Below are positions 11,814-41,130 of a stretch of DNA of 59,296 nucleotides, in pieces. This stretch comes from a virus (lineage: Duplodnaviria > Caudoviricetes), in the IMG/VR virus record IMGVR_UViG_3300039171_000065, positions 1 to 59,296 of that record. One strand, written 5' to 3'. How positions within the stretch are numbered: position 1 is the stretch's first letter; every line of letters starts with the position of its first letter. The notes below the pieces were generated by a model. The model was not told where the DNA came from. It saw only the letters and a program-made list of their open reading frames with translations, and searched no databases. The position numbers and the translations under genes are program-made.

Positions 11814-12908
11814 ATGAGCAAAGTAATGATATCAACAGATTGGCATATCGGGGCGCGAGGTGGCAGTACAATCTTTCGAGATTATTTTACGTGGTATTTT
11901 AAAGAAAAATTCTTTCCTTATATGAAAGAAAACAACATCACCACACTATTAATGCTTGGTGATTTTTTTGATAATCGAAACCACTTGTCACTCAGTGATA
12001 TTGCTTTTGTGAATGAGGTTTTTCTGCCTTTGCTAGAGTCACATAAGTGTACTATGTACACCATTGCTGGTAATCATGATCTGGCATTCAAAAATACAAA
12101 TGCAGTCACATCTTTGTCTATTATGCAACACAGCAAATATGTACACATTCTAAAAGACAAGGTAGAAGAATTCAATTTTGATGGTAGTCGGTTTGTATTT
12201 GTGCCATGGATCAACGGCAACAACTACGATGAGTTCATGACAGAACTAAACAACATCAAAGACAAAGAAAACACATTTGTACTTTGCCACGCCGAATTTA
12301 ATTCATTTCTCATGTACAAGAATTCATCTCGTTGTGAATCTGGAATCGAACCAAGCCTTTTCAAAGAATTTAAAGGTGTGTGGTCTGGTCACTTTCATCA
12401 CCCGTCAAAAATTGGTAATGTCGAATATCTGGGATCAATGTTTCATCTCAATTGGCAAGATCATAACGACAAGCGCGGGTTCTGGGTGTATGACACAGAC
12501 ACACAAGAAAAGGTTCATATTGAAAACGAGTATAGCTTGTTCACTGAAATTCTCTACGAAGACGATCATGGATTGACAGATGATCAGATCAATGAGTATT
12601 GCAACCACCAGTTTGTAAAAGTTGTGATCGACAAAGAATATGATAAAGTCAAGTTTATGGACTTTTTCTCTAAGGTTAACAGCGCCAAACCGATTGATGT
12701 ACAGGTTCAGAATAATTATGCTATACTGAGTGCCAAAGAAATTACCAAAACTGATGCTGCTGAACCAGACGTAAAAGATAAGTCTATTGATACTTACATA
12801 GACACATACGTTATGAAGACAGTTTCAGAAGACAAGCGGGCCTCGATTATGAGCAAGTTCAATGATGTAAAGGCTAAAGCATCTGACATGATAGTTAAGG
12901 GTGAATAA
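11814..12908 (+). CDS. gp47: Recombination nuclease subunit (Mre11/SbcD-like)
   Basis: DWHIG, LGDFFD, GNHD, SGHFH metallophosphoesterase motifs; precedes gp46. Confidence 0.95.
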   Translation: MSKVMISTDWHIGARGGSTIFRDYFTWYFKEKFFPYMKENNITTLLMLGDFFDNRNHLSLSDIAFVNEVFLPLLESHKCTMYTIAGNHDLAFKNTNAVTSLSIMQHSKYVHILKDKVEEFNFDGSRFVFVPWINGNNYDEFMTELNNIKDKENTFVLCHAEFNSFLMYKNSSRCESGIEPSLFKEFKGVWSGHFHHPSKIGNVEYLGSMFHLNWQDHNDKRGFWVYDTDTQEKVHIENEYSLFTEILYEDDHGLTDDQINEYCNHQFVKVVIDKEYDKVKFMDFFSKVNSAKPIDVQVQNNYAILSAKEITKTDAAEPDVKDKSIDTYIDTYVMKTVSEDKRASIMSKFNDVKAKASDMIVKGE

Positions 12909-14817: not shown

Positions 14818-15993
14818 ATGAAGATTACACAAGAATTGGTTGAAACATACGTTGATCGTGGGCTTGTGAAACGAAACGTATTGGGTGATTTCACACTCTA
14901 CTGTTATTCACAAGAAACATTTTTTGATAAGTCATGGGATGATGTGACAAAATCTTGTCGTGGTCTGGTATTTTATAAGGGCGAGATTGTCAATCATCCA
15001 TTTCCAAAAATTTTCAATCTGGATGAGGTTGAAGAAACATCACTTGATCAAGTCATGAGCTTGATTGCTGGTGGTCAAGAATACGTGCTTTGTCACAAAG
15101 TAAACGGCCATCTATGTATTGTTGATTATATTGCAGAATTGGACAAGTTTCTGGTTCATACAAAGGGTTCTCTTCAAGACAATGAAATGAATCAATCTGA
15201 TAAAGAAATGTTTTTTACTCAACACACTCATATGATAGAAAAGATTCGATCAAATGGTTCGAGTGTTACTTTCATGTTTGAGTCTATTCATGAAGACGAC
15301 CAACATACACTATACGAACAAGAAGTTTCCCGCTATGGTGGAAGAAACAACTTGGTTTTACTTGGTGGATATCATGAAAATCCACAGAGAAAAGGTCATT
15401 GGAAGTCATTACCGCCATGGTCACTACAAAAATGGGCAGAATATAGTGGAACTCCCTGTGTCGAACACGATGAAGAAAAAGCACTGGATCATGACACAAT
15501 CAAGCTTATGTTTGATGAGATTGACACAGAAGGCTACGTTATCTGGTTTACCAATCTCGATTTTCGAGTCAAGGTCAAAACCACAGACTACTGGAAAATG
15601 CGGTTTCGTAAAGAGTTAACACCAGATACCATTATTGATAAGTTTGTTTCTGGTGGGGACACACGAATCCAAAACCGATACCCAGAAGAGATTGCTGATA
15701 AGGCTGTTGATTTGATAGAAAGATATTTCGATAGGTTTATTGCTGATGCTGGTCTAAGTATCCCTGCAAAAGCTTTTGGATTAGAAAGAAAGAATATTGC
15801 TCAAAGTGATTTACTGACAAATATGCAAAAATCTTTGTTATTCAACATCTTAGACGGAAAGAAAATAGTTATTAAAAAATATATGAATAATAAGCAATTT
15901 CGACTTGACTTCAAAGCCTATATGAACGATAATGAGTCATACAAGAAAGACATTGCGGATTCACTCATTAAATACATTGAAGAACGAGGATAA
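14818..15993 (+). CDS. rnlA: RNA ligase 1 family
   Basis: CRGLVF, PFPKIFNL, motif I KVNG, FMFE, EGYVI, RVKVK. Confidence 0.88.
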   Translation: MKITQELVETYVDRGLVKRNVLGDFTLYCYSQETFFDKSWDDVTKSCRGLVFYKGEIVNHPFPKIFNLDEVEETSLDQVMSLIAGGQEYVLCHKVNGHLCIVDYIAELDKFLVHTKGSLQDNEMNQSDKEMFFTQHTHMIEKIRSNGSSVTFMFESIHEDDQHTLYEQEVSRYGGRNNLVLLGGYHENPQRKGHWKSLPPWSLQKWAEYSGTPCVEHDEEKALDHDTIKLMFDEIDTEGYVIWFTNLDFRVKVKTTDYWKMRFRKELTPDTIIDKFVSGGDTRIQNRYPEEIADKAVDLIERYFDRFIADAGLSIPAKAFGLERKNIAQSDLLTNMQKSLLFNILDGKKIVIKKYMNNKQFRLDFKAYMNDNESYKKDIADSLIKYIEERG

Positions 15994-15997
15994 TATT

Positions 15998-16192
15998 ATG
16001 AACGCTGGACTATTGATGGTTGTGATTTGTTTTGCTGCTCTGGCAGGTCTTGGATTTGCTATCTCATTTGGAGTATATATTGTTGTAGCAGTCTTTGGTG
16101 GAAACACCACCATTACAAAAAAAATGATGAAATTCTTTGGCATCGTTCTGGGAGCTAGTTTAGTCGGCTTCTTATTCGCTGCTGATAAGTAA
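15998..16192 (+). CDS. Small two-TM membrane protein
   Basis: Two hydrophobic helices; GAGGA RBS. Confidence 0.65.
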   Translation: MNAGLLMVVICFAALAGLGFAISFGVYIVVAVFGGNTTITKKMMKFFGIVLGASLVGFLFAADK

Positions 16193-16205
16193 ACGGGAAT
16201 ACGTT

Positions 16206-16730
16206 ATGATTATACTGATGAGAGGAACATCGTGTTCTGGAAAAGGAACTTTCATTGAAACATATTTTGGGCATGAAAGTTCCAACCACGTTTTGTCATC
16301 TGACAATTTTCGAGAGATGTTGTGTGGAACGGTAACAGAACAAACACAGAACAAAATTGTGTTTGATACAATTAGAATGGTTCTAGAGAACCGTTTGAGA
16401 AATCGCGTACCTTTGACCATTCTTGACGCCACACATATTCGATTCAAAGACTGTCAAGACGTGGTTGATCTGTCTAAAAAGTACCATACACCTATCATGG
16501 TAATTTCGATTCAGCCACCTTCTATCGAAGAGTTGAAGTCTAGAAACTTTGATCGTATGAAAGAAACAGGGTTCTTTGTACCAGAAGGGGTTCTTGAAAA
16601 GCATCATCATCGTTACACAGCTTCCATGGCCCCATTTATTAAAGAAGCAATGTACAACGAGTATCTCAAATTTACTGAAATTGACCAAGATTACAACGTG
16701 GTTCGTTTTGTTGAGGGGGTTGATAAGTGA
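16206..16730 (+). CDS. Polynucleotide 5'-kinase (AAA_33 / Pnkp kinase module)
   Basis: GTSCSGKGT P-loop, LSSDNFR, ILDATH, RN..R lid. Confidence 0.85.
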   Translation: MIILMRGTSCSGKGTFIETYFGHESSNHVLSSDNFREMLCGTVTEQTQNKIVFDTIRMVLENRLRNRVPLTILDATHIRFKDCQDVVDLSKKYHTPIMVISIQPPSIEELKSRNFDRMKETGFFVPEGVLEKHHHRYTASMAPFIKEAMYNEYLKFTEIDQDYNVVRFVEGVDK

Positions 16731-17530
16731 GTAAATTTGATCTTGATGAAATGATGATTGATCACGGCAACAGAGTCAAATCAGTACGTGTTGATGTCAA
16801 CAGATATAATGTGTACGCTATTGGTGACGTACATGGGTGTAATTCTGAGATGATAGAACTCATTGAAAAATGTCTTGTTCATTGTTACAAAGAGAAAAAA
16901 TTTGCAAAAATTTACTTGCTTGGTGACTTGATTGACAGAGGCCCAGATTTTTTTGAAGTTTTCTTGTCACTACAGCATACTTTTATCGAATGTATCATTG
17001 GAAATCATGAACTGAATTTCTACCTTGAACGAATGGGCAAAGAATGTCGTTCCCGTTCACGTAAAGTCTCTCATGACAAATTTGATGCATTGGAAGAACA
17101 GCATCAAGACTTTGTTATGAAGAGTATTGGTGATATGCCAAACGCAGCCATTGTAGAGCTTTTTGACGATACAGGTGATATGGATATGGTTCCTTTTCTT
17201 TTATCACATTCACCAATCAGGAATATTGAGTATATCGAAACAGATGGTGTTTACAGCACATTAAACGCACCACAATGCTGTATGCGATCAACACAAATCG
17301 ACATGAATGCCTTAGATAAAACAACGAATGGTTGTGTGTTGGTTCATGGGCACCAGTCATGGAACTTTAAACCAGTTCCTGAACAGTTAGAAGATCAAGA
17401 AAAATACAACAACAAAGTAATCAATATTGATTCCGGTTGTGTGTATGGAGAAAAGCTTACAGCACTTTGCTTAAATTCACTTGAAGTGATTGAGGTACAA
17501 GCTAAAAAGGCGTATAGTACACGCCACTGA
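16727..17530 (+). CDS. Calcineurin-like metallophosphoesterase (Pnkp phosphatase/ApaH-like)
   Basis: GDVHG, GDLIDRG, GNHE, HGH, IDSGCVYG.KLTAL. Confidence 0.9.
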   Translation: MSKFDLDEMMIDHGNRVKSVRVDVNRYNVYAIGDVHGCNSEMIELIEKCLVHCYKEKKFAKIYLLGDLIDRGPDFFEVFLSLQHTFIECIIGNHELNFYLERMGKECRSRSRKVSHDKFDALEEQHQDFVMKSIGDMPNAAIVELFDDTGDMDMVPFLLSHSPIRNIEYIETDGVYSTLNAPQCCMRSTQIDMNALDKTTNGCVLVHGHQSWNFKPVPEQLEDQEKYNNKVINIDSGCVYGEKLTALCLNSLEVIEVQAKKAYSTRH

Positions 17531-37603: not shown

Positions 37604-38116
37604 ATGAAAAAGTCTATGATCTTTGCAAGTATGTTACTCGCAGCAAACGTGAATGCTTATGAGTATAAGAATATAAAATCAACAAGCCAAACAGAAGGGA
37701 ATGCTCAATTTCTCGCAACCGTTATTAAATTTGAAAGCACAGACCTAAGCTCTATCCAGATGATCAAAGCCAAACAAAACTTTGCTAGGTGTAGTATTGA
37801 TGAGGCGGCAAAGGATGTTATTGAGGCTGGATTGGGATTCGAAGTTCTTTCTTCTATATCTCAGATGATATATAAGTATCATGTGTATGGTGACATCAAC
37901 CGTGATTTTAAAATGCAGCGATCCGATGTTGTTTATGTAGAGGAACTTAATTTCCGATGCATTGATGAAACACCAGACAAAGAAAGCACCATATTCTCAT
38001 ATGTCATGTCATCGTCAATGTTCAAAGCCGAGTGTTCGGATAATCCAAAATGTTTCATGCCAAAAAAGTTAAAATATTTTGAAACATTGAAAACCAAATA
38101 TAATATAGGAAATTGA
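37604..38116 (+). CDS. Putative exported protein
   Basis: Signal peptide MKKSMIFASMLLAANVNA; four Cys. Confidence 0.7.
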   Translation: MKKSMIFASMLLAANVNAYEYKNIKSTSQTEGNAQFLATVIKFESTDLSSIQMIKAKQNFARCSIDEAAKDVIEAGLGFEVLSSISQMIYKYHVYGDINRDFKMQRSDVVYVEELNFRCIDETPDKESTIFSYVMSSSMFKAECSDNPKCFMPKKLKYFETLKTKYNIGN

Positions 38117-38117
38117 T

Positions 38118-38366
38118 ATGAGCATAAAAGCAATGAGCATTAATGAAAATGAAAAAAGAGAGAAAAGTTATCCGTATGTTGGAATCTCAAAAGGGCCGGG
38201 TGGGTACGTTTGTGTTCTTTTTGTTTGTAGCAACACAGGATGTGTAGTTCTAACCAATTTTCTTGGTGATGATATAAGCACTACAAAATACGTTGGAGAT
38301 TTTGGCACAGATTGGGTAGAGAGTGAGTTCACGCCTGTAGAAGCAAACATTCAATTTGGAATTTAA
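38118..38366 (+). CDS. Hypothetical protein
   Basis: In-operon ORF with RBS. Confidence 0.65.
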   Translation: MSIKAMSINENEKREKSYPYVGISKGPGGYVCVLFVCSNTGCVVLTNFLGDDISTTKYVGDFGTDWVESEFTPVEANIQFGI

Positions 38367-38367
38367 C

Positions 38368-38688
38368 ATGATAGATAATATTACACCAGTTGTTGTAGAG
38401 CCTTGTGATTTTAACTGTGGACACAAGCTGATTGAATTGAGTATTGTTGTGGATGTTTTTGAATCAGATGTTGAAAACATCGAATACATTCTAGGTCAAA
38501 AGATTCAAAGCATTCAGTTTGCTGATGAGGTGGTGGCTTATGAAATGATTCTGCATTTACTAACAGATGCAGACTCAGAAAAACTTGATCTTTCTATGGT
38601 TAAGGTGTTGTGCAACTTTTTGATTGATGATCAAATTAATCGACTCAACAAAGTGATTGAACCATTGTATGGGATTACGTATGAGTGA
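38368..38688 (+). CDS. Hypothetical acidic protein
   Basis: In-operon ORF. Confidence 0.6.
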   Translation: MIDNITPVVVEPCDFNCGHKLIELSIVVDVFESDVENIEYILGQKIQSIQFADEVVAYEMILHLLTDADSEKLDLSMVKVLCNFLIDDQINRLNKVIEPLYGITYE

Positions 38689-39184
38689 AAAAACATCAAG
38701 TGATACTTGGCGTGATCGGTTTTTGTGCTTCGCATTATTCTATGCCACATTCTCAAAAGACCCTTCAACCAAAGTTGGTTGTGTTATCACAGACTCACTC
38801 AACAGACCCATAGGGTTTGGTACGAATGGCTTTGCTAGGACTTACCAGCATGATGAGGCGACTTTTGGGGATAGGGTGGAGAAGTACAAGCGTGTTCTTC
38901 ACGCCGAAGAAAACGCTATCTACAACGCTACAAAAGAGGTTCGTGATGGTACGGCTTATATTTCTCACCCACCATGTTTACACTGCTCACATGTACTGGC
39001 ACAAAACGGTATAAGTAAGGTAGTCAGTATTAAACCAACGGGAGAATTTGCTGATCGTTGGTGTATAAAAGAAACAACATTCGAACTAGACGCGCTTGGT
39101 GTTGAATTTGAAGTTGTTGAAAGACCAAGTAGTGATTCAATTGTGAAATCTCTTGACCAATGGCAAAAAACTGTAATAGGATAA
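38681..39184 (+). CDS. dCMP deaminase
   Basis: SKDPSTKVGC, G.NG, HAEENAI, PPCLHC. Confidence 0.93.
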   Translation: MSEKTSSDTWRDRFLCFALFYATFSKDPSTKVGCVITDSLNRPIGFGTNGFARTYQHDEATFGDRVEKYKRVLHAEENAIYNATKEVRDGTAYISHPPCLHCSHVLAQNGISKVVSIKPTGEFADRWCIKETTFELDALGVEFEVVERPSSDSIVKSLDQWQKTVIG

Positions 39185-39194
39185 GGAATGAATT

Positions 39195-39419
39195 ATGAAT
39201 AGTGTAGATATGTTTTTTCAAGTTGTTTTGTTGTTTTGTTTATTGCTTTCTAGTATCATGGTTATTGTTGGTGTGATTTCTACGATTTCAACATTCAAGG
39301 CAGCAAAGCGAGATAGTGTTGATCTAGATTTCAATCCAAATTCGTTTTTTGTAGCTGTAGTTATGCCAATTTTGTATATGATTTCATTTGCAATCGTGTA
39401 TAGTGGTGTGGTAGTATAA
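39195..39419 (+). CDS. Small two-TM membrane protein
   Basis: Two hydrophobic helices. Confidence 0.65.
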   Translation: MNSVDMFFQVVLLFCLLLSSIMVIVGVISTISTFKAAKRDSVDLDFNPNSFFVAVVMPILYMISFAIVYSGVVV

Positions 39420-39428
39420 GATATAAAT

Positions 39429-39513
39429 GCCGCGATTCCCTACACCAGCCTTCTAAGCTGGTACTTAAACAGTAGGATGGAAGTGAGGTGTTCGATTCAC
39501 CATCGTGGCTCCA
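39429..39513 (+). ncRNA. Atypical tRNA-like RNA: UCU anticodon loop, no D-arm, encoded CCA
   Basis: GCCGCGAT/ATCGTGGC acceptor stem + T + CCA; GGTG-TTCGATT-CACC T-arm; ACCAGC-CTTCTAA-GCTGGT anticodon arm only 7 nt after the acceptor stem. Confidence 0.85.
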
Positions 39514-39544
39514 TTTTTATGTGCCAACTAAGGATATATTTAAA

Positions 39545-39874
39545 ATGTGTATCATCGTTGAAACCGTAACAGAAGTTGAGAATGTTGAAGATATTGCATT
39601 TGGTCGGTACAAACTCTATTGGGAACCAGTGAACATTAACTTTGATGGAAAGTGGTCAATTGTAGAAATTTTTAAGGATAAGTGGGATGTAGAAATTTTT
39701 AAGGATAATTGGGATGATGAAATTGTCTTTAGGGCAGAAGATCATGTATTGAAGCACAGCCTTACAGAGAATGCAGACAGAATCAAAAAACTTGTAAAAA
39801 TCGGAGATTTAAAAAATGACACCACTAGAATACAAATCACACATAATGCGAACTGTCGTCTATCCAACAAATGA
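39545..39874 (+). CDS. Hypothetical protein with an internal 9-aa duplication
   Basis: AAGGA RBS; 27-bp tandem repeat 39661-39714. Confidence 0.6.
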   Translation: MCIIVETVTEVENVEDIAFGRYKLYWEPVNINFDGKWSIVEIFKDKWDVEIFKDNWDDEIVFRAEDHVLKHSLTENADRIKKLVKIGDLKNDTTRIQITHNANCRLSNK

Positions 39875-40217
39875 ACAGTTCTTTGATTCAACGCGAAAGC
39901 GCAACATCCGATACTTCACAAAGTACAAGCCGCACCTGTTTGGTCGTGTTCTGGAACGTGGAATTGATCAGGCAACTTTCAAAGAAATCTTTGAACTTCT
40001 GTTTGAGCGTCATTACGATTATCTTCTGAACATCTTTGAAAACAACAAAGAGAAAATGAACTCTGATGATTCCATTGCTATCTTTGTTCGCAGAAGTGAT
40101 GTTAGTATCTGCTTCATCGTTTTTGATGATGAGAAAGATGGGTTTTTCAGTATGATGCCTCTGACTGTTCTGGGTAAATACGAATACAAAAAATGTGACT
40201 ACGAGATTGAACTATGA
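39816..40217 (+). CDS. Hypothetical protein
   Basis: GGAG RBS; H..GR..ERGI motif. Confidence 0.7.
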   Translation: MTPLEYKSHIMRTVVYPTNEQFFDSTRKRNIRYFTKYKPHLFGRVLERGIDQATFKEIFELLFERHYDYLLNIFENNKEKMNSDDSIAIFVRRSDVSICFIVFDDEKDGFFSMMPLTVLGKYEYKKCDYEIEL

Positions 40218-40402
40218 TTATGTTTCTGGATTATCTTTTGTATTGGGTATTGTGTCTTTTTGTATACTGTGCGATTGAAAAGATATTTAATAAAGAACCT
40301 TTAAAATTAATTATAAATGAAAACTTAATTAAAACGGGTTTCTTTTCTCTTTTAATATATCTTACAATTTTTTATTTTAGCAGGGAATTGATGTACCTAT
40401 GA
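40214..40402 (+). CDS. Small membrane protein
   Basis: Hydrophobic; coupled at both ends. Confidence 0.55.
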   Translation: MIMFLDYLLYWVLCLFVYCAIEKIFNKEPLKLIINENLIKTGFFSLLIYLTIFYFSRELMYL

Positions 40403-41130
40403 AGAATGATCCATTCACATGGAAAAGGTTTGACTGGGAACCACTTGACTTTGAAGAAATGGAGTCAGTGACAAACGAGGAAACGGGGAAGAGATTCTAC
40501 AAGACGCCTGTAGGGAATCTTCCATCCATGACCACCATTCTAGGAATTTTGGATGATGGTGGTATTGATGCATGGATCAAGCGGGTTGGTGTTGACGAAG
40601 CAGAGAAAATCAAGAACGAAGCATCGGCTCGTGGAAACTCGCTTCATGATCTAAGTGAGGGATATTTGCGGAATGAGATAGAACGCTCTCAGCTACACGG
40701 TAAGGGCAAGGTGTTGTTCAACCGTGTTAAGCCACTACTAGACACCATAAACCCCGTTCTAGCCACTGAGATTCCCTTGTACAGCAAGAAATACGGGTTT
40801 GCTGGTCGTGTTGACTGTATCGCTTACATTGATGGTGTTCTCTACATAATAGACCACAAGAACAGCCGTAGAGCATTTAACTTTAAAAAACAATACGCTA
40901 GAAGAAAATATTTTTGCTACGTATTGCAGGTTACAGGTTACGCCATTTGTGTTGAAGAAATGTTTGGACTCAAGGCAACAAAAGGGTGTATCATTGTAGG
41001 CAATCACGAACTGTCTAATTCAGATATGTTCAAATTCTCTATCGACAAATACAGGGGTGAGTTTGAAAAGCTGATTGAGATTTTCAAAGGAACTCGTGAC
41101 GAAAAAGATTCTCTCTACTACAAACTATAG
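40399..41130 (+). CDS. PD-(D/E)xK exonuclease
   Basis: R.Y.TP, PSMTTIL, RGN.LH, E..L.S, AGRVDCI, IDHK, Q..GY. Confidence 0.85.
   Translation: MKNDPFTWKRFDWEPLDFEEMESVTNEETGKRFYKTPVGNLPSMTTILGILDDGGIDAWIKRVGVDEAEKIKNEASARGNSLHDLSEGYLRNEIERSQLHGKGKVLFNRVKPLLDTINPVLATEIPLYSKKYGFAGRVDCIAYIDGVLYIIDHKNSRRAFNFKKQYARRKYFCYVLQVTGYAICVEEMFGLKATKGCIIVGNHELSNSDMFKFSIDKYRGEFEKLIEIFKGTRDEKDSLYYKL

Follow-up and report, generated by a model that had tools for sequence, protein, structure and literature searches.

D-arm-less tRNA-like elements of bacteriophages with a pseudoknotted core and a probable role as arginine tRNAs

Introduction

Can a phage make a transfer RNA (tRNA) that is not a cloverleaf and have it used in bacterial translation? 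The question is raised by a 59,296-nucleotide (nt) stretch of viral DNA, hereafter the window, which comprises positions 1-59,296 of the virus record IMGVR_UViG_3300039171_000065 (Duplodnaviria; Caudoviricetes; estimated completeness of the record, 33%). At 39429-39513 (+), the window carries an 85-nt element with the ends and anticodon loop of a tRNA and no D-arm. According to the portion of Edelmann et al. (2024, PMC11551756) available to us, all known bacterial tRNAs are cloverleaves and natural arm-less tRNAs occur only in mitochondria; the same portion reports that an engineered D-arm-less tRNA was accepted by E. coli HisRS, elongation factor Tu (EF-Tu) and ribosomes without adaptation. 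Here, we place the element in a widespread phage family with a covarying, pseudoknotted core. From comparative sequence analysis, we consider it likely that the element is a translationally active, AGA-decoding tRNA-Arg(UCU) charged by the host arginyl-tRNA synthetase (ArgRS), and we weigh this reading against a decoy, a recoding tRNA and a decayed gene.

Results

The element keeps the ends of a tRNA and lacks the D hairpin

The element is present once in the window, between an open reading frame (ORF) at 39195-39419 and an ORF with a likely ATG start at 39545. A first-pass annotation had described an 8-base-pair (bp) acceptor stem, U73, an encoded CCA, a 4-bp T stem, the anticodon loop CUUCUAA and a 7-nt linker, and all of these parts were present where it had placed them (Table 1). 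Only the seven nt at 39437-39443 occupy the position of the D-arm, without a D hairpin, and the family range is 7-9 nt. The tRNA features that remain are an acceptor/T branch of 12 bp, split 8/4 rather than 7/5, together with U33, a UUCGAUU-type T loop and a 3' CCA. The anticodon loop has 7 nt with U33, C35, U36 and A37, and the 19-nt anticodon arm is identical to the arm of ordinary phage tRNA-Arg(UCU) genes.

This architecture largely escapes standard tools. ARAGORN called no tRNA genes in the whole window and detected 3 of the 58 family members described below, and Rfam gave no match in the window at the gathering threshold, RF00005 included. At E ≤ 10, the sole Rfam match within 39300-39650 was a chance S15-leader hit of 12.5 bits, and the element thus matches no Rfam family. 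A megablast search of window positions 38000-41000 against GenBank phages likewise returned no match. The minimum-free-energy fold of the element is exactly the structure containing helix H1, described below (-29.1 kcal/mol, z = -2.26, with 5 of 200 shuffles folding at least as well). The single-sequence fold beats chance weakly; the comparative evidence is decisive.

Relatives are numerous, phage-borne and tied to arginine anticodons

A search with the 19-nt anticodon arm also matched one divergent full-length relative in Acinetobacter phage ME3. Homologs were found by blastn against GenBank phages in 36 Acinetobacter phage records, where they are unannotated or lie beneath spurious ORFs. With the copy of E. 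coli phage Av-05 as the query, 340 GenBank phage records matched (Vibrio 301, Acinetobacter 32, Aeromonas 3, Escherichia 2, Salmonella 1, Salicola 1), and in 328 of them the match spans at least 80% of the query. None of the homologs among the 60 matches listed of the 340 is annotated as a tRNA. Short 'hypothetical protein' ORFs, some of them antisense, have been annotated over the element, for example in Acinetobacter phage Kimel (L047:2497-2586 (-); labels beginning with L are our locus handles), and are probably spurious.

Scans with sequence patterns contributed further loci, 20 and 29 in viral contigs and 66 in metagenome contigs. From 57 distinct pattern hits, two spurious ones (L116, L120) and one cut by the contig end (L067) were removed, leaving 54 members of 83-90 nt; four further sequences from BLAST and a covariance model brought the relatives examined to 58 distinct sequences. 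The UCU loop, GGANGG, NNGT and the T loop were all set in the patterns that collected most members. Departures from these motifs are seen in members recovered by BLAST or the model, with GGGUGG in Vibrio phage Gary and AGCU in the Vibrio T5-like copies. The covariance model, built from 15 gapless 85-nt members, scored members at 43-109 bits and the window copy at 101, against at most 25 for ordinary tRNAs in the same loci.

Across the 54 pattern members, the combined length of acceptor and T stems is invariably 12 bp (8/4 in 49, 9/3 in five). CCA is encoded in 37 of them, and T serves as the discriminator in 23, G in 21, A in nine and C in one. The linker after the acceptor stem is conserved in length and variable in sequence, and an A-rich run of 5-6 nt is conserved across the family.

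Anticodon-agnostic scans of viral contigs recovered UCU only, at 20 of 20 and 31 of 31 loci, and the covariance model found one tandem non-UCU copy, with the loop CUGCAAA and the anticodon GCA (Cys). The first-pass annotation had missed this near-total tie to arginine anticodons, as it had a second covarying helix, H2. The Cys-anticodon copy (L104:1836-1918 (+)) directly follows a UCU copy (L104:1753-1835), and the same pair occurs in L118; it has a 6-bp H1 and no GGA motif, and is the only non-UCU member found in the window's family.

Cultured phages with members infect E. coli, Acinetobacter and Vibrio, and lytic phages of the T4-like and T5-like types are among the carriers. A tight anticodon-agnostic pattern matched one stretch among 185,579 species genomes (one genome each), at the start of a Vibrio injensis contig, and neither 5,426 complete E. 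coli genomes nor 72,556 plasmids gave a blastn match. In essence, this is a phage-borne family. A host gene or integration-site remnant was rejected on this near-absence from species genomes, E. coli genomes and plasmids.

Compensatory changes define a core in which two helices cross

The gapless 85-nt alignment (15 distinct sequences) has 405 cells, 99.3% of which pair, and 18 of its 27 pairs show changes on both sides; for the gapless 88-nt alignment (29 distinct sequences), the figures are 93.1% of 812 cells and 21 of 28 pairs. None of 500 shuffles equalled the observed values in either set, a statistic that is inflated by kinship among the sequences. Sliding the partner strand in the 85-nt alignment lowered pairing to 36-43%. 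All five helices covary, and a model-free mutual-information scan placed only pairs of the model in its top 10 (85-nt set) and top 12 (88-nt set). Every one of the eight acceptor pairs varies, with changes on both sides in seven of them in the 85-nt set and in all eight in the 88-nt set.

The missing D-arm had been proposed to be replaced by a helix between the linker and the variable region (CCTAC/GTAGG), and the alignments bear this out. In both length classes, this helix, H1 (element numbering 11-15/44-48), covaries and has all of its cells paired (100%), and 20 distinct complementary combinations occur among the 54 members. Pair 13-46 is AU in eight, CG in five and UA in two of the 15 85-nt members, and pair 14-45 is AU in nine and GC in six; in the 88-nt class, three pairs of H1 covary. 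The alternative helix offered at the same time, TTCC/GGAA, found no support, pairing in 65.0% against a shuffle mean of 65.5%, and was discarded.

H2 (35-38/53-56 in element numbering) is the stem of the variable-arm hairpin. It is 100% paired in the 85-nt set, in which pair 37-54 (GC in seven, UA in five and CG in three of 15 members) has the highest mutual information of all pairs. In the 88-nt set, pairing at the outer three positions of H2 is 100% and includes one G-C to C-G swap, and the fourth pair is non-standard in 20 of the 29 sequences; the Vibrio T5-like (Demerecviridae) copies have a swap to G-C at pair 36-55. The strands of H1 and H2 interleave, which makes the core an H-type pseudoknot whose first loop accommodates the anticodon arm. 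We infer that both helices would form simultaneously in one molecule, with H1 stacked on the anticodon stem in the manner of a D-stem and the GG after H1 docked on the T loop.

What had been described as a perfect 6-bp anticodon stem proved to consist of five stem pairs and one pair of another kind. The sixth pair, 39444/39462, is A-U in all 15 of the 85-nt members and a standard pair in only 14 of the 29 88-nt members, and it behaves like canonical position 26.44.

The element sits among tRNA genes and shares a slot with canonical tRNA-Arg(UCU)

A same-strand tRNA gene lies within 20 nt of the element in 20 of the 58 members and within 1 kb in 37 of 58. In three Acinetobacter phages, the distance of the element from tRNA-Thr or tRNA-Met genes is 1-16 nt, and in one contig a tRNA-Arg(CCU) begins 2 nt downstream of it. 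Five complete or near-complete carrier genomes have 7 (fHyAci03), 18 (YMC13/03/R2096), 4 (ME3), 25 (SCTP-2) and 13 (Av-05) Rfam tRNA hits; no RF00005 hit in these genomes overlaps the element, and none of their ARAGORN calls is a tRNA-Arg. Eight Rfam hits in the four carriers other than fHyAci03 have no ARAGORN call, and four of them read by eye as Phe, Ile, Ile and Ile. The remaining four, SCTP-2 298729-298847, 307176-307256 and 320118-320245 (L126, L127) and ME3 163454-163532 (L125), have insertions of ~45-55 nt or anticodon loops of 8-10 nt, and ARAGORN makes no call there.

The syntenic slot of the element is flanked by the dCMP deaminase gene on one side and by the next conserved gene on the other. 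In the window it holds the knotted element. In the relatives L006 and L008, whose neighbouring genes have 66-84% protein identity to those of the window, it holds a canonical 77-nt tRNA-Arg(UCU) (L006:2442-2518, L008:2430-2506), and in a close relative, L007, a third form, which represents a second D-arm-less architecture. The first-pass annotation had linked the existence of homologs with a normal D-arm to a simple deletion in this copy. Normal tRNA-Arg(UCU) genes do occupy the slot in relatives; the knotted elements form a separate conserved family and not a deletion derivative.

The canonical genes of L006 and L008 have an unusual anticodon loop, UUUCUAC, and the same loop occurs in a knotted member (L130:4271-4358).

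A second D-arm-less architecture separates arginine from isoleucine and methionine anticodons

The form in the L007 slot (L007:3046-3125 (+)), which we call type B, is 80 nt long, lacks a D hairpin and has its branch split 7/5. Phages of Streptomyces, Microbacterium and Vibrio and one crAss-like phage carry relatives of it, so that this nested 7/5 form extends over phages of Gammaproteobacteria and Actinobacteria and a crAss-like phage. In 34 gapless 80-nt members, a 3-bp helix between the linker and the variable region is 100% paired and all three pairs covary; this surrogate helix is followed by UAA and a GG-N motif.

A type B scan that left the anticodon and the base after GG free found 112 loci and yielded 68 distinct candidates of 78-81 nt, of which 59 were parsed and nine were not placed by the parser. 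The base after GG was A in 53 of 53 parsed members with arginine anticodons (ACG 23, UCU 20, UCG 6, CCU 4) and U in five of five Ile/Met-type members (GAU 1, UAU 1, CAU 3); one mis-parsed member reads by eye as GCG and also has A. Inspection by eye of the nine unplaced candidates gave five UCU with GGA, one UAU with GGU, and three ordinary or unrelated sequences. The bacterial identity sets given in the accessible part of PMC9976931 are A20, C35 and U/G36 for Arg, and include U20 for Ile. The GGA/GGU split matches these A20/U20 rules, and we therefore read GG-N as a putative relocated G18-G19-N20, which implies that ordinary synthetases would recognise these molecules.

Type B resembles the window's family in lacking a D hairpin, in pairing a C-rich post-acceptor strand with a partner located behind an A-rich run on the 3' side of the anticodon arm, in its GG-A motif and mainly arginine anticodons, and in being found both in phage tRNA arrays and at the same syntenic slot. 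It differs in its length of 78-81 nt, its 7/5 branch and its 3-bp surrogate helix, and no second helix crosses the first, so that it is nested rather than knotted; it also covers all main arginine anticodons plus a few of Ile/Met type. The covariance model of the window's family scores type B at only ~31-39 bits.

Two annotated genes touch on this architecture. A type B member of Streptomyces phage Mildred21 (L137:601-676) is annotated as tRNA-Phe(gaa); its loop, CUUCGAA, gives UCG (Arg) in the usual register, and the label looks like a register error of the gene finder. In Vibrio phage 424E50-1, an 88-nt 'tRNA-Und' (L139:877-964) lies ~200 nt downstream of a type B member, with tRNA-Gly and tRNA-Ile between them; its fold has two irregular internal hairpins besides an acceptor stem of 7 bp and a T arm of 5 bp.

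Codon usage and candidate arginine identity elements

AGA accounts for 118 of 496 arginine codons (23.8%) in 45 long ORFs of the window. When 21 AGA codons in three window genes were compared with orthologs, the aligned residue was Arg at 16 (nine of them encoded by CGN), Lys at four and Ser at one, and this predominance of Arg argues against recoding.

The anticodon satisfies C35 and U36 of the bacterial arginine identity set. No D loop is available to hold A20, and the element has two candidate GG-A sites, 39479-39481 and 39475-39477. As ANGG was fixed by the search patterns, its conservation in pattern-derived members is no evidence. The assignment of the joiner GG as a candidate G18-G19 and of A39481 as a candidate A20 instead draws on the GG-A/GG-U rule of type B and on the published identity rules.

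Discussion

The element as a probable arginine tRNA

We favour an active tRNA-Arg(UCU) because the structure is under selection and keeps the 12-bp branch, the T loop, the anticodon loop and the CCA; because family members lie in tRNA arrays, five carriers have no recognised tRNA-Arg, and the element exchanges with canonical tRNA-Arg(UCU) in a syntenic slot; and because AGA usage, the alignment of AGA codons with Arg in orthologs and the GGA/GGU signature of type B all point to arginine. The acceptance of an engineered D-arm-less tRNA by the E. coli machinery makes this reading plausible. On host ribosomes, the element would read AGA and probably AGG as well. Among the functions offered by the first-pass annotation, AGA decoding is thus the one we favour; the non-canonical charging that went with it gives way to probable charging by ArgRS.

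A possible course of events can be outlined. The element would be transcribed with its neighbours, here probably by read-through from the upstream gene and elsewhere inside polycistronic tRNA arrays. RNase P and 3' trimming would excise it, both acting on an acceptor/T minihelix with the canonical 12 bp. In place of a D hairpin, the 5-nt strand after the acceptor stem would pair with five bases of the variable-hairpin loop to form H1, which would stack on the anticodon stem as a D-stem does. H2, the hairpin's own stem, would cross H1 to complete the H-type pseudoknot with the anticodon arm in its first loop, and the GG after H1 would dock on the T loop to form an elbow. Host ArgRS would then charge the molecule through C35, U36 and the A20-like A after GG, and EF-Tu would accept the 12-bp branch.

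Several observations weigh against an active tRNA-Arg(UCU). Beyond the kinship that inflates the shuffle statistics, the patterns fixed several motifs, and the invariance of those motifs is therefore partly by construction. Three 88-nt members (L027, L082, L110) have U, not A, after the second GG, and Vibrio phage Gary has G in place of A after the first; the presentation of an A20-like base without a canonical D loop is itself something that we infer. The window's U73 differs from the usual A/G73, although the identity table in the accessible part of PMC9976931 also lists U73 for bacteria. One irregular anticodon region in ME3 and three in SCTP-2 mean that a hidden tRNA-Arg is possible in these carriers. 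In the metagenome contig L105, a 90-nt knotted member without an encoded CCA (12091-12180) is accompanied by a 75-nt tRNA-Arg(UCU) called by ARAGORN (12331-12405), in an array that also holds tRNA-Arg(CCU), so that the element and canonical tRNA-Arg(UCU) are not strictly exclusive. In the window itself, ARAGORN found no tRNA array, and a scan of 39100-39700 gave three promoter-like sites against 2.2 expected and no terminators. For window positions 39150-39950, a look through public RNA runs yielded none.

Alternative readings

The most serious alternative is that the element is a tRNA mimic acting outside translation, either as a decoy or sponge for an anticodon nuclease that attacks tRNA-Arg or for another tRNA-targeting defence, or as a titrator of ArgRS or of a modification enzyme. 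Since the anticodon arm is that of an ordinary tRNA-Arg(UCU), it would deceive any enzyme whose recognition is confined to the anticodon stem-loop. The near-restriction to arginine anticodons (31 of 31 agnostic loci with UCU; 53 of 59 parsed type B members and the one read by eye as GCG) would suit a decoy, and the RNA-repair enzymes encoded by the phage fit a life under tRNA attack. However, a decoy has no need for a branch that compensates between 8/4 and 9/3 to keep 12 bp, for a canonical T loop or for an encoded CCA. The element moreover replaces canonical tRNA-Arg(UCU) in the syntenic slot and is the one gene of Arg type to be found in phage tRNA sets that are broad in other respects, Cys-anticodon and Ile/Met-type versions exist in which the identity base shifts accordingly, and the literature within reach of our search turned up no defence specific to tRNA-Arg. 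We regard this alternative as improbable.

Far less credible is a recoding tRNA, charged by another synthetase (for instance SerRS, as are allo-tRNAs), through which AGA would be read as an amino acid other than arginine. The 8/4 and 9/3 branches and the long variable segment do recall allo-tRNAs. Against this, AGA aligns with Arg at 16 of 21 ortholog positions, the loop of the variable hairpin is consumed by H1, and the GGA/GGU rule follows Arg versus Ile anticodons. The discriminator also varies freely, and such variation at N73 is ill-suited to synthetases that depend on this position.

Decay of a tRNA-Arg(UCU) gene through deletion of its D-arm, or an integration-site leftover, would be in keeping with the normal gene in the same slot of close relatives and with the failure of ARAGORN and Rfam to recognise the element, but it is scarcely tenable given compensatory changes in every helix, 58 distinct sequences and homologs in 340 GenBank phage records, which uphold the earlier view of a selected element, together with a window copy at 101 bits under the family model against at most 25 for ordinary tRNAs, the presence of both acceptor strands, and occurrence in lytic T4-like and T5-like phages.

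Relation to known tRNAs

With canonical tRNA-Arg(UCU), the probable tRNA described here shares the type of anticodon arm, the T loop, a 12-bp branch, an encoded CCA, the tRNA arrays and the syntenic slot. It differs in having no D hairpin, in its 8/4 or 9/3 rather than 7/5 branch, in being undetected by RF00005, and in its 24-nt variable segment, which forms a hairpin whose loop is paired back to the 5' linker.

As described in the main text of Mukai et al. (2016, PMC5389517), in the part examined, allo-tRNAs have an 8/4 or 9/3 branch and a D-arm with a long stem and a tetraloop, and most have serine identity; they insert Ser in E. coli, and the 9/3 forms include anticodons for AGA/AGG. The element is like them in its 12-bp branch split 8/4 or 9/3, its long variable arm and, as far as that text goes, its occurrence in phages. 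Unlike them, it has 7-8 nt between the acceptor and anticodon stems, which leaves no room for a D-arm; neither a D-arm-less form nor the term 'UCU' was found in the examined main text.

Mitochondrial D-arm-less tRNAs, such as mammalian mt-tRNA-Ser(AGY), resemble the element in the absent D hairpin, the short linker and the extended helix on the anticodon side. They are described in the available portion of PMC11551756 as Y-shaped, without contact between D and T loops, and as having co-evolved partners. The element is, by comparison, phage-encoded, has a canonical T loop, a conserved GG and a D-stem surrogate drawn from the variable region, and would work with unadapted bacterial machinery.

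Our literature search, which had most subscription journals outside its reach, found no clear description of a D-arm-less phage or bacterial tRNA. We regard the family as a new structural variant of tRNA, with some risk of an earlier mention in literature outside that search. A candidate structured RNA, DNAVirus_2961, is stated in the accessible part of Fremin et al. (2023, PMC10690425) to overlap ARAGORN tRNA-Arg calls in some cases, and may be the window's family.

Implications

The family probably represents non-cloverleaf tRNAs that work in ordinary bacterial translation. A wider reading, to which we give even chances, is that phages of many bacterial groups routinely use D-arm-less elongator tRNAs in knotted 8/4 and nested 7/5 forms, both of which draw on the variable region to reconstruct the D-stem and the G18-G19-N20 module for elbow and identity, and that unmodified host ArgRS charges these tRNAs for use on host ribosomes. 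Such molecules would be the first natural tRNAs of non-cloverleaf shape in cytosolic (non-organellar) translation. Their near-restriction to arginine might, as a speculation, reflect an arms race in which the phage escapes host or phage factors that recognise the D-arm of canonical tRNA-Arg.

If the family is active, the statement that bacterial tRNAs are all cloverleaves fails for the phage world, and the L-shape can be built by another wiring, with a D-stem donated by the variable loop and held by a pseudoknot. The family would then be a natural experiment in the recognition of A20 by ArgRS where no D loop exists, and would supply compact and structurally distinct scaffolds for orthogonal tRNA design. 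Since none of the 60 listed of the 340 matches is annotated as a tRNA and spurious ORFs lie on top of homologs, the tRNA-Arg repertoires of phages, and arguments from codon usage, are probably incomplete.

Neighbouring genes and other features

The gene content of the window is T4-like, with a gp46-type ATPase, a gp45-type clamp, an RNA-repair set and a dCMP deaminase (Table 1). The genes at 14818-17530 had been taken for RNA-repair genes and are of that type. They lie next to the gp46- and gp45-like genes, and the set resembles the tRNA repair logic of T4 Pnkp/Rnl1, with the kinase and the phosphoesterase as separate genes. The suggested partnership between these genes and the element was not borne out: they are 22 kb away, and an Rnl1-type ligase occurs in two of the five complete carrier genomes.

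Table 1. Parts of the D-arm-less element and other features of the window and of related loci
Feature	Position	Strand	Remark
Acceptor stem, 5' strand (8 nt)	39429..39436	+	pairs with 39502-39509, one G.U
2-nt linker UC	39437..39438	+	family length 2 nt in 48/54, 3 nt in five 9/3 members, 4 nt in 1
Helix H1, 5' strand CCUAC	39439..39443	+	pairs with 39472-39476; putative surrogate D-stem strand, continuous with anticodon stem
Anticodon arm: 26.44-like A-U pair, 5-bp stem, loop CUUCUAA	39444..39462	+	strands 39444-39449/39457-39462; anticodon UCU 39452-39454
Helix H2, 5' strand ACUU	39463..39466	+	pairs with 39481-39484; variable-arm hairpin stem
A-rich loop AAACA	39467..39471	+	between H2 5' strand and H1 3' strand
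Helix H1, 3' strand GUAGG	39472..39476	+	from variable-hairpin loop; fold and both alignments
AUGG joiner	39477..39480	+	GG, candidate G18-G19 equivalent; next A (39481), candidate A20
Helix H2, 3' strand AAGU	39481..39484	+	covariation, mutual information
2-nt joiner GA to T arm	39485..39486	+	
T arm, 4-bp stem, loop UUCGAUU	39487..39501	+	stem 39487-39490/39498-39501
Acceptor stem, 3' strand	39502..39509	+	pairs with 39429-39436
Discriminator U and encoded CCA	39510..39513	+	U 39510; CCA 39511-39513
Rnl1-type RNA ligase	14818-15993		
P-loop kinase	16206-16730		
Metallophosphoesterase	16727-17530		
dCMP deaminase	38657-39184		
Type B loci	L137:601-680, L138:601-682, L139:595-680, L140:594-680; ~60 viral-contig loci in L141-L252		

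Downstream of the element, the ORF at 39816-40217 weakly matches the T4 endoribonuclease RegB (E = 5e-4, 20.6 bits, with a Pfam cut-off of 27). ARAGORN also called tRNAs with a CUA anticodon ('tRNA-Pyl'; amber-suppressor-like) in Acinetobacter Lazarusvirus phages and in ME3 (L046:455-529, L047:436-510, L125:6549-6622).

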